Shown here: piece after piece, positions 24,363 to 26,687 of the stretch | How the letters are laid out: each line of letters opens with the position of its first letter | Position numbering within the stretch: position 1 is the first letter of the stretch | Source of the DNA: Alphaproteobacteria bacterium | GTDB lineage: Bacteria > Pseudomonadota > Alphaproteobacteria > Bin98 | Assembly (NCBI GenBank): GCA_965261615.1 | Contig: OZ253461.1 | Span: 1,395,994 to 1,459,993, forward strand | Direction of reading: 5' to 3' | Length of the DNA: 64,000 nucleotides | Made by a program: the position numbers and the translations under genes | Notes under the pieces: generated by a model | Databases searched by the model: none | What the model saw: only the letters and a program-made list of their open reading frames with translations | Told to the model about the DNA's origin: nothing

Positions 24363-26687
24363 TTAAAATCCTCTATGATACCTATCATGATCCTTAGTTT
24401 TACGCAACTCTGGCTCCTGGGCTATAATCATATGCCGTGGTGAAAGCGATCGGTCATATAAAACAAAATTCGTACTATCCTGCAGAAGATCATTCCCCCC
24501 GAGAAAAACTCCCCCCTCTCGCTGCACTCCCATTTGAGAAGCCACTAGATCTTCAAAATGCCCCGCTTCATCACTTCCAGGATCTATTGTTGTTTTGGAT
24601 CCAAACTCATCCAGCTTGTCACGCATATTGTCCAAGTCTTCTTGCATTTTGTCTATTTCTTTATTTTTTTTCTCGAGAGCATCCAGTGTTTCCTGCTGTT
24701 GACTCAACAACTCTATTTTTTCATCCTCCCAAGCGGTAACAGCACCCTCATCATCCCCAAATCCGTCACCATCGCTATCTGTAAAGGTTTGTTGCTCCAG
24801 CTCTGCCATCTTTTTCTGCTCCTCCTCCATGCGACGAACCATCTCATCACGCTCCTTATTCATTTTGTCCAGGTCAACCTCAAGAGCCTTTTCTTTTTCG
24901 CGGTCTGGTCTTTTATATTCCCAATCCATCTCATCTGCACTATCATCACCATCATCATCCCCTTCCTCTTCTTCTTCTTTTTCAGCATCAGCATCACCAT
25001 CACCTGAATCGTCCAAGAGTTTAGCTAACGCTAAGTCATCCTCTGACAGCTCTAGTTCCTCTTGTGTCTCTTCAGATGGTGGTGGCGGGGGTGGTGGTGG
25101 CGGGGCTTCTTCTTCCACCACCTCTTCTTGTGCACTCCCAGCTGATGGCGGTGAAGGCTCTGTGCTTTCTTCTTTTGCATCATCAGGGCTTTCTTTACTG
25201 CCAGAAGATTCGCTTGTATCATCTGCAGTGGCACCACCCCCTGCAGCGCTAGATGCAGCTCTCGCCCCTTGCGCTGCACCACCAGCCTTTAAAGCTTTTT
25301 GTTGCTGCTCCCACATTTCCTTCTGCTGCTTAGCATACGCTGCTTCTTGCTCTTTTTGTTTCTTTTCCCACGCCGCATATGCCTCGCGCTGGGCTTTAAG
25401 TTTAGCCTCCTTACGTTTGCGCGCCGCCTCTCTACGTTCCGCTCGACTTGTGCGTATGGCGCGAGCTCCCTTCGTCACAGCAGCCCTACCCGAGTTCATT
25501 GCTTTCTTTAGCGAATTTAACAGCCCACCTCCTCTAGCACTGCGCCGTGCGCCTAGCGCCGAGTTCAGTTGACGTTGTGCTGCCAATGCACGCGCTGGGT
25601 TGCCTGACCTTTTAGCACGAGCCAACGCACCTTGCGCACGCGAAACACGCGCATTTGCATTCTTCATTCTTTGTGTGGCCATCCTACTAGCGTGTGCTTT
25701 TTCACGCAAACGACGGCTGGACGTCATTTCTGAAGTTTCCGTAGCTGTTTTTGCTTTATCTAAATTTTTATTGGCTTCTGCCTGAGATTTTTGGGCGTTT
25801 TTTAAGTTACGATCTGCAGCTTTTTTATTACGTCGCGCTTCTCGAATCCGGTTTTTATCCCCACTAGCTTCGGCTTCTGCTAACTCACGATCTGCCGCAT
25901 CTGATTGATCTTGTGCGGATGAGGCGTATGCATCTGCCTCTCTTTTTTTTGCTTCTGCGGCCGACTTATCTGACTCAGCAGCTCGAGCTGCATCCTCTTC
26001 CTTTTGCGCTTTATCTAGTTTTTTTTGAGCACGCTCTTCTGCTTGTTTGTCACCACTATCTTGAGCCGATTTTAGTTCGTCCTCGGCTTCTTTTCGCTCA
26101 CGCGCAGCCTTCTGCTTTCGGGTTTCTGGCGGACCACCACTTCTCGCTTGATCTCGCTCTAGCTGCTTTTCTGCCGCAATATTCTTTTTTTCTTCCAGTT
26201 CCTCACCCTTGCGGTCAGACCTTCTTTGCGCAGCATCTCTTCTCGCTCGAGCAGCCGCTATCTTTTCTTCATCAGGTGGGTCTTCATTTTCCGCCTCTTC
26301 AAGGTCAGACTCTGCCTTATCTAGCTCAGCATCAGCCTCTGCCTTCTCTTTCTCGGCAGCCTCAGCGTCCGCCTCTGCCTGCGCGCACTCTGCATCCTTT
26401 TGGGCTAACTCTGCATCTTTTTCATCTTCCTCCGCTTCACGAGCGGCCTCATAATCGTCATCTTCTTCCGTTGCAGGAGAGTAGTCATCCTCCTCATCAG
26501 CAGAAGAATAGTCACCCCCCTTATCACTTGCAGGGCTTTCTTCTTTTTCCTCAAAAAGACCTTGCGTCCCATAGTCGTCAGAAGCCGCTTCGCTATAATC
26601 CCCAGCAGTCGCCGGCCCATAGTCACCACCCCCTCCTTCTATAGTTTGGGCACACAAAAACAAACATAATACCCAAAGCCCAAACAT
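24363..26687 (-). CDS. Exported 774-aa hyper-charged low-complexity/coiled-coil protein with poly-proline and acidic-Trp motifs (orphan; candidate effector or envelope spacer)
   Basis: Signal peptide MFGLWVLCLFLCAQTIEG, then an acidic DY-repeat region. Long E/K/A/R/D-rich predicted helices follow, then a Gly/Ala/Ser linker, APPPPPPPPPSEE and an acidic block ending DEMDWEY. There is a further coiled coil and a ~70-aa C-terminal region that is not low-complexity. The frame is open for 2.3 kb. Confidence 0.7.
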   Translation of the reverse strand: MFGLWVLCLFLCAQTIEGGGGDYGPATAGDYSEAASDDYGTQGLFEEKEESPASDKGGDYSSADEEDDYSPATEEDDDYEAAREAEEDEKDAELAQKDAECAQAEADAEAAEKEKAEADAELDKAESDLEEAENEDPPDEEKIAAARARRDAAQRRSDRKGEELEEKKNIAAEKQLERDQARSGGPPETRKQKAARERKEAEDELKSAQDSGDKQAEERAQKKLDKAQKEEDAARAAESDKSAAEAKKREADAYASSAQDQSDAADRELAEAEASGDKNRIREARRNKKAADRNLKNAQKSQAEANKNLDKAKTATETSEMTSSRRLREKAHASRMATQRMKNANARVSRAQGALARAKRSGNPARALAAQRQLNSALGARRSARGGGLLNSLKKAMNSGRAAVTKGARAIRTSRAERREAARKRKEAKLKAQREAYAAWEKKQKEQEAAYAKQQKEMWEQQQKALKAGGAAQGARAASSAAGGGATADDTSESSGSKESPDDAKEESTEPSPPSAGSAQEEVVEEEAPPPPPPPPPSEETQEELELSEDDLALAKLLDDSGDGDADAEKEEEEEGDDDGDDSADEMDWEYKRPDREKEKALEVDLDKMNKERDEMVRRMEEEQKKMAELEQQTFTDSDGDGFGDDEGAVTAWEDEKIELLSQQQETLDALEKKNKEIDKMQEDLDNMRDKLDEFGSKTTIDPGSDEAGHFEDLVASQMGVQREGGVFLGGNDLLQDSTNFVLYDRSLSPRHMIIAQEPELRKTKDHDRYHRGF

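Follow-up and report, generated by a model that had tools for sequence, protein, structure and literature searches.

What kind of protein is encoded between positions 24363..26687, on the minus strand, of a 64,000-nucleotide stretch of the genome of an Alphaproteobacteria bacterium (assembly GCA_965261615.1, contig OZ253461.1; the whole stretch is referred to below as the window)? The open reading frame (ORF) at this site begins with ATG, has AAGG 6-9 nucleotides upstream of this start, and specifies 774 residues, of which 41% are Asp, Glu, Lys or Arg and 16% are Ala, with a net charge of -66. In composition it is a clear outlier among the ORFs of the window, the exception being a truncated DnaK tail. 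The coding strand is rich in purines (A 0.33, G 0.31); the remaining five frames of the region contain 15-93 stops each, and the 774-residue ORF is therefore not a by-product of the purine-rich strand. An initial annotation, made from the letters alone, had described a long, exported, charged 'coiled-coil' 'orphan' at this position, and the description stands save for the two quoted words. As set out below, the gene is real and under purifying selection, it belongs to a lineage-restricted family, and the most likely site of its role is the bacterial envelope or the host interface.

The case for a functional gene comes from strain variation. The locus was found in public runs of three organisms at a depth of ~6x or less, and the sponge metagenome X8 carries a ~90%-identical strain. 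Contigs of X8 show 83 substitutions in the gene, 46 of them at third codon positions (binomial p=3e-5), and the changed codons comprise 40 synonymous and 33 non-synonymous cases. The ratio of non-synonymous to synonymous substitution rates (dN/dS, by Nei-Gojobori-style counting) is ~0.21 overall and differs along the protein: 0.07 in the central helix (residues 257-357), 0.13 in the C-terminal tail (residues 694-774), 0.26 in the acidic Asp-Tyr head (residues 4-93), 0.31 where the basic block passes into the spacer (residues 398-520) and 0.38 in the spacer itself (residues 526-582). The frame is kept by all insertions and deletions, which amount to a gain of 6 nucleotides in X4 and, in X8, to changes of +3, -12 and -3 nucleotides together with a compensated -1/+1 pair; at the protein level these are differences of +2, +1, -4 and -1 residues. 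Collectively, these results identify a real gene under purifying selection, which acts most strongly on the tail and on the helix that has the look of low complexity. A search for RNA runs found none.

The gene is also shared with a second lineage. A metagenome scan based on DnaQ led to a locus, L001, whose DnaQ is 58% identical to that of the window and whose gene order matches the window exactly: nuoE, nuoCD, nuoB, tRNA-Met, a 923-residue ORF, a 726-residue ORF, ygfZ, GNAT, dnaQ, surA-like and rsmA. The 923-residue product is a homolog of the 774-residue protein (BLASTP composition-adjusted E=3e-35, 35% identity over residues 111-489), and tBLASTn with SEG masking also recovers its C-terminal region (E=1e-11). 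Near-identical blocks include EDPPDEE.IAAARARRD, LAEAEASGD, AR.SRAQ..LA.AK..GNP, SAD..DW.Y..RP and a C-terminal pattern beginning DEFG. The same locus, with a 918-residue variant of the homolog, occurs on contig MPNG01000002.1 of GCA_002238905.1 (L082, the gene at 7480-10236); the corresponding record, MPNG00000000, is 'Alphaproteobacterium bin98' of the sponge Aplysina aerophoba. Bin98 had the smallest genome of its study (~1.9 Mb, 40.65% GC, 1455 coding sequences) and the lowest share of genes in COGs, 34% (PMC5649159). Six further sponge-metagenome runs contain the homolog, and in two of the six a 402-nucleotide in-frame block with 44-nucleotide repeat flanks is missing, which yields a form of ~789 residues. 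There are no other relatives among the other 79 of 80 DnaQ loci, and no paralog in the window.

The two lineages share the signal peptide, an acidic DYG head that opens the mature protein, the motifs at the helix breaks, the aromatic DW.Y..RP motif and the C-terminal region. They also agree in how the charge blocks succeed one another, from acidic through mixed, basic and acidic to a short basic tail that ends in Phe. Not kept are a run of nine prolines (P9), an LKKA site, a DxDxDG-like loop at residues 637-648, the sequence and length of the spacer, and the number of helical repeats. The 774-residue protein is accordingly a member of a lineage-restricted family with two diverged members and strain variants, and it is in this sense that the word 'orphan' needs replacing. 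Relatives and length variation, which the initial annotation had suggested looking for, are both present, in that spacer and repeat number vary by strain: forms of 923, 918 and ~789 residues are seen for the bin98 homolog, beside the small in-frame changes noted above for strains of the window's gene. Downstream of rsmA, the bin98 locus additionally encodes (L001 13723-15124, minus strand) two similar-looking charged proteins of ~228 residues without signal peptides, both containing VTLENI; they have no counterpart at that position of the window and no meaningful match in Pfam.

Searches with the protein itself returned nothing. It has no match in Pfam or NCBIfam, none in the PDB by sequence (phmmer) or profile, none in a metagenome scan and none by phmmer against 1.84 billion representative sequences; a word-index search of 5.8 billion proteins was negative for both the whole protein and its C-terminal 183 residues. 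Exact look-up of the window's proteins, and of the 923-residue homolog, found nothing, and scans of genome collections with NuoCD and ProS gave no match. Foldseek, run on an AlphaFold2 (AF2) model computed from the single sequence, retrieved generic long-helix matches only (E>=0.09). The remark in the initial annotation that no family could be recognised is thus upheld by Pfam, NCBIfam, the PDB and Foldseek. These negatives are weak for sequences of such biased composition, because they missed the public bin98 homolog, present in Joint Genome Institute and NCBI assemblies, which was found by synteny. This implies that no-match results for compositionally biased sequences should not be read as absence.

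The protein can be divided into the following segments, given in order from the N-terminus with coordinates in the window.

26634..26687, minus strand: residues 1-18, N-terminal hydrophobic export signal MFGLWVLCLFLCAQTIEG, with a probable signal-peptidase I site after AQT or IEG.
26436..26633, minus strand: residues 19-84, acidic, disordered head with six Asp-Tyr pairs and a net charge of -20.
25728..26435, minus strand: residues 85-320, helices rich in Ala and in charged residues, interrupted at conserved sites (EDPPDEE-IAAARARRD, DSGD, EASGD); predicted local distance difference test (pLDDT) values from AF2 of up to 95.
25302..25727, minus strand: residues 321-462, basic helical block, net charge +28, with conserved 'AR.SRAQ..LA.AK..GNP' and 'AAR.R.EAK'.
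24942..25301, minus strand: residues 463-582, disordered spacer, rich in Gly, Ala and Ser and then acidic (AF2 pLDDT <50).
25077-25103, minus strand: the P9 run (P529-P537), within the spacer.
24903..24941, minus strand: residues 583-595, conserved aromatic motif in an acidic context, SADEMDWEYKRPD, which aligns locally with SADWTYHDRPE of the bin98 homolog.
24594..24902, minus strand: residues 596-698, two amphipathic or coiled-coil-like helices split by the non-conserved DxDxDG-like acidic loop.
24363..24593, minus strand: residues 699-774 and the stop codon, a non-repetitive, conserved C-terminal region with a basic tail ending in Phe; low AF2 confidence.

The sole hydrophobic segment of the protein is MFGLWVLCLFLCAQTIEG (residues 1-16). 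It provides an h-region and plausible AQT|I or IEG|G cleavage sites but no basic n-region. At the same place the bin98 homolog has a textbook signal peptide, MYVWAKIFFLLLCLSAPCEA|, directly after which the sequence reads GDYGQTGSDYG...EEDYGLSDLF. The Sec-type signal proposed at the outset is plausible, and it is kept in the homolog. A basic residue before the hydrophobic core is absent from three proteins of the window, namely the SurA-like protein (30551-30620, plus strand), the exported protein encoded upstream (28140-28208, minus strand) and the 774-residue protein (26634-26687, minus strand), which may be characteristic of signal peptides in this organism.

Cleavage would expose the acidic head, in which Asp-Tyr dipeptides lie at residues 22, 30, 38, 59, 68 and 78. 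All six Tyr residues of positions 19-90 are preceded by Asp, an arrangement reproduced in none of 20,000 shuffles. The six pairs noted in the initial annotation are confirmed, and strain X8 retains every one of them unchanged. Part of the head arose by a 27-nucleotide tandem duplication (26473-26526), and the motif 'DYG...LF.E..EE' is common to both homologs.

The AF2 model places confident helices at residues 75-479, with breaks at 135-139, 183-189, 212, 276, 362 and 386, disorder at residues 13-74 and 480-595, two further helices at 596-636 and 647-698, and a low-confidence tail at 699-774. About 400 residues of charged helix had been predicted as coiled coil. The helix is supported by the model; the coiled coil is not, since in residues 85-320 only 5.9% are Leu, Ile, Val, Met, Phe, Trp or Tyr and there is neither a heptad signal nor 3.5-residue periodicity, which makes this segment a charged, Ala-rich helix and not a canonical coiled coil. 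The further coiled coil proposed nearer the C-terminus is at best represented by residues 596-698, which are 23% hydrophobic and match generic coiled-coil models of Pfam only, below threshold. The other predicted elements are all found: the strongly basic block of Arg, Lys and Ala at residues 321-462, the Gly/Ala/Ser linker, proline run and acidic block within residues 463-595, and a short C-terminal region free of low complexity at residues 699-774. The spacer is the region of lowest identity to the bin98 homolog, which carries three copies of AADDSAEGSEAASA there; the strain differences of +6, +3 and -12 nucleotides also fall in it. The C-terminal region follows the conserved pattern DEFG..PG..G.F.D.VA..MG..R.GG.F..DL.QD..F, and the isolated tails find no match in Pfam even at E<=10.

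Three more specific roles were considered and rejected. An outer-membrane-protein-type C-terminal beta-signal is rejected because conservation extends to the final Phe but not to the alternating pattern, and because there is no barrel. Calcium binding through an EF-hand or DxDxDG loop is discounted as a core function, the motif not being conserved in the homolog. A link to the calcifying 'calcibacteria' of some sponges has no genome or host support; Aplysina, the host of the relative, is not known to have a mineral skeleton.

The immediate surroundings of the gene comprise three further features.

26826..28208, minus strand: gene for a second exported protein, upstream of and co-oriented with the 774-residue gene; 460 residues from M57, the longest ORF (516 residues) reaching 28376.
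24273..24349, plus strand: initiator tRNA-Met (fMet), convergent, 13 nucleotides from the stop codon of the 774-residue gene; a syntenic landmark with the same layout in L001.
28291..29061, plus strand: gene for a ygfZ-like folate-binding protein, with weak GCV_T/CAF17 matches; a syntenic landmark.

The setting originally described, with a second exported protein and a position between tRNA-fMet and ygfZ, was correct, the 516-residue ORF and ygfZ lying as placed. The real start of the neighbour is probably M57, MLYFCLFFCVSLGLNVSFA.... The gap between the two genes is 138 nucleotides in the window and 6 nucleotides in bin98. The neighbour has its counterpart in the 726-residue product of the gene that precedes the bin98 homolog, the two being homologous at 20% identity across 382 residues (E=5e-6), and no family is recognised for it in Pfam or NCBIfam. 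The suggested pairing of the two proteins is hence borne out, in that it is syntenic in a second lineage. Near its N-terminus the bin98 counterpart (L001 6219-8399, minus strand) has five tandem GQGMTGQGFP units, where the window copy is only Gly-rich, and in some metagenome-assembled genomes the bin98-type gene is split at contig ends. The tRNA is assigned as the initiator because it combines the anticodon CAT with a C1xA72 mismatch; directly 5' of it lies a perfect sigma-70 consensus promoter (24236-24263, plus strand) consisting of TTGACA, 16 nucleotides and TG-TATAAT.

How might such a protein work? Our tentative preference, held at somewhat less than an even chance, is for an elongated 'block polyampholyte', specific to the lineage and exported through Sec, whose place of action would be outside the cytoplasm, at the envelope or on the symbiont surface, and whose partner would be the exported product of the gene just upstream. 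Both sponge-associated lineages keep the architecture, the charge blocks and the arrangement of two genes, with differences in length that stem from in-frame repeats. That the protein is exported, where it resides, that it works with its neighbour and that it binds ligands are what we infer from these sequence features. No beta-barrel, lipobox or autotransporter domain is present, and a Sec substrate that also lacks any further secretion signal would be expected in the envelope by default; the organism's Gram-negative envelope set is ordinary (LolCE, a SurA-like protein, PBP5, RlpA-SPOR). Removal of the signal peptide would leave an acidic Asp-Tyr-Gly module as the mature N-terminus, carried on ~400 residues of stiff Ala/Glu/Lys/Arg helix that is first of mixed charge and then strongly basic, and followed by the variable acidic spacer, the amphipathic helix pair and the small conserved C-terminal region. 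Docking to the partner or to an envelope component could fall to the parts under constraint (central helices, DW.Y..RP motif, C-terminal region), while the variable spacer may set the reach. Ligands of opposite charge, for example cations, anionic polymers of the envelope or matrix proteins of the host, might be bound by the acidic DYG head and by the basic block, and the protein and its upstream neighbour are proposed to be co-transcribed partners.

A conserved and strongly selected exported pair that lacks relatives elsewhere is a good candidate for an association-specific function, possible roles being envelope remodelling, surface masking or host contact. The lineage itself belongs to poorly understood, reduced-genome alphaproteobacteria, of which the bin98 relative has been seen in sponge samples only. 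The locus provides handles for antibodies, proteomics and heterologous assays, as do its conserved DYG head, DW.Y..RP motif and C-terminal region.

Several points weigh against a role as an envelope or surface scaffold. The signal peptide was assessed by eye and by conservation. Neither the C-terminal region nor the neighbour, whose mean AF2 pLDDT is 42, has a confident predicted fold. The proposal is worded broadly. No secretion system able to release the protein is found in the 64-kb window of a ~1.47-Mb genome, and one may be encoded elsewhere.

A released, host-targeted effector is the alternative that survives best, though we consider it unlikely. The protein would be stored in the periplasm or exported further and would then enter sponge cells or matrix, where its acidic Asp-Tyr sites might be substrates or mimics for host tyrosine kinases or sulfotransferases, and where the basic block (with RKRK-like clusters) and the proline run might engage host nucleic acids or SH3/profilin-type domains. 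Its composition is like that of secreted proteins of host-restricted bacteria. In both lineages the mature protein opens with Asp-Tyr pairs set among acidic residues and Gly, and both keep a basic C-terminal tail although the rest of that half is acidic. The genome is reduced, at 1.47 Mb, and the lineage has been met in sponge samples only; there is also a precedent in the 63-kDa PRP1 and 89-kDa proteins of Holospora obtusa, which are Sec-exported and then released (PMC9866348). However, the two features most suggestive of host mimicry, the P9 run and the DxDxDG-like loop, occur in the window's lineage only; the homolog has neither, nor does it have the LKKA site, and the strongest constraint lies on the long helix and not on short linear motifs. 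A Sec signal would be unusual for a type I or type IV secretion substrate, the 64-kb window contains no secretion system, and the intracellular lifestyle is presumed, the data being the ~1.47-Mb genome and the sponge-derived runs only. Two particular versions fare worse. Type I secretion of the RTX or TRP-like kind is argued against by the N-terminal signal, by the absence of RTX repeats in Pfam searches and by the absence of type I secretion genes from the window and related loci. Mimicry of WASP/ActA/RickA-type actin nucleation promoters or WH2 domains is rejected as a core function, since the homolog lacks the P9 run and the LKKA site; of such features the two proteins share just the acidic Trp motif DW.Y..RP, whose position is internal.

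That the protein is a functional analogue of TolA, a periplasm-spanning strut between inner and outer membranes that replaces TolA or has diverged from it in a fast-evolving reduced genome, appears quite improbable. The overall layout recalls that of E. coli TolA, in which a hydrophobic N-terminal stretch leads into a long helix rich in Ala, Lys and Glu, then a linker rich in Gly and finally a small domain at the C-terminus. Other envelope-facing complexes of this genome are highly diverged (NuoD, for example, is <=30% identical to any other). Nevertheless, both homologs and their isolated tails lack any match to TolA or TonB models of Pfam and NCBIfam even at E<=10, and the PDB offers none by sequence, profile or fold (phmmer, profile, Foldseek). 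The N-terminal hydrophobic run spans ~15 residues and contains neither Ser nor His, the homolog's signal ends ...SAPCEA|G, a signal-peptidase-type site, and the ~70-residue acidic DYG head that follows immediately is foreign to TolA. The gene lies outside tolQRAB-pal, its neighbours in both lineages being tRNA-fMet, the nuo operon, the exported protein, ygfZ, GNAT and dnaQ. The TolA-like strut of the initial annotation is thus left without the C-terminal domain, the Ser/His anchor and the tol-pal cluster, and the search it proposed for a periplasmic structural homolog gave generic long helices and no TolA match. A fold-level match of the tail to a TolA/TonB domain may still be conceivable, as AF2 confidence in the tail is low.

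Highly improbable, in our estimate, is a more specific form of release in which the mature N-terminus, (G)DYG...DYG...EEDY, is tyrosine-modified by sulfation or phosphorylation, or mimics such a modified sequence, and engages sponge receptors or matrix while held on the charged rod. The Asp/Glu-flanked Tyr context is present and conserved in both homologs; no sulfotransferase or kinase was identified within the 64-kb window. Were it true, this would be a bacterial imitation of the acidic sulfotyrosine or phosphotyrosine motifs of animals, analogous to the mimicry of plant PSY peptides by RaxX. Scarcely credible is a largely function-free low-complexity expansion, tolerated but not selected under the extreme purine bias of the coding strand, since, although a similar tract exists in the ~200-residue repeat tail of S2, GC skew is negative throughout the window and the spacers vary through gain and loss of repeats, dN/dS is 0.07-0.13 in the helix and tail, order, motifs and synteny persist at a DnaQ identity of only 58%, and the reading frame is intact in every strain seen.

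Some wider features of the genome deserve mention. It is a single contig of 1,465,401 bp (~1.47 Mb), and the locus is present in sponge-derived runs. GC skew is uniformly negative and very strong across the whole 64-kb window (-0.06 to -0.30), where the minus strand carries almost every gene; orientation and skew are the same in the bin98 relative (L001 1-15171). The complex I genes of the nuo operon (17800-24214, minus strand) are extraordinarily diverged: NuoC and NuoD are fused into 511 residues, with a best NuoD match anywhere of <=30% identity, NuoF matches Pfam at E=6e-8 only, and NuoB is a 115-residue remnant with three Cys and without the N-terminal CC motif. The complex I genes of bin98 are in the same state (L081 11895-18950), whereas ProS and S2 of the window are conserved normally. 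S2 (rpsB, 7089-8393, minus strand) has 434 residues and ends in the ~200-residue tail, which contains ~12 tandem copies of AKPAAAKAKTESAE (7089-7700); it also matches the NCBIfam 'S2 sunset domain variant' model below the cut-off.

Placed beside known systems, the putative envelope or surface scaffold shares several traits with each and coincides with none. It shares with TolA the hydrophobic N-terminus, the very long helix that is rich in Ala, Glu and Lys and shows no heptad seam, the linker of Gly-rich sequence, the small C-terminal region and an envelope location, here a predicted one; in contrast to TolA, its N-terminus looks cleavable and is followed by the acidic DYG head, and a large basic block and an acidic spacer are present. 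Single alpha-helices of the ER/K type, like other charged, Ala-rich rods, are very rich in charged residues and Ala and contain very few bulky hydrophobics. The helices described here share the high charge and Ala content, the scarcity of bulky hydrophobics and a confident AF2 prediction as isolated helices, but opposite-charge pairs at i/i+3-4 are not enriched in residues 85-320 (62, against 57±6 in shuffles), and conserved SGD, GNP and DPPD turns break the helices and could allow hairpins. The Ehrlichia proteins TRP32, TRP47 and TRP120, compared by general description, are likewise strongly acidic and repeat-bearing. They have no Sec signals and use type I secretion, in contrast to the N-terminal Sec-type signal found here. 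RaxX and PSY are short sulfated peptides with a DY motif that need a dedicated sulfotransferase, and the Asp-Tyr pairs in the acidic, Gly-rich context of the mature N-terminus resemble such tyrosine-modification sites. Finally, the 63-kDa PRP1 and the 89-kDa invasion-tip protein of Holospora obtusa have putative signal peptides and are stored in the periplasm, some being exposed or released to the host (PMC9866348). Compared by description and not by sequence, they too are lineage-specific signal-peptide proteins of an alphaproteobacterium, in that case a host-restricted one; PRP1 differs in having a D5_N DNA-binding domain, whereas the protein described here has no recognised domain. With no detectable link to a described family, it resembles in kind the known exported, charged, repeat-variable proteins of host-associated bacteria.

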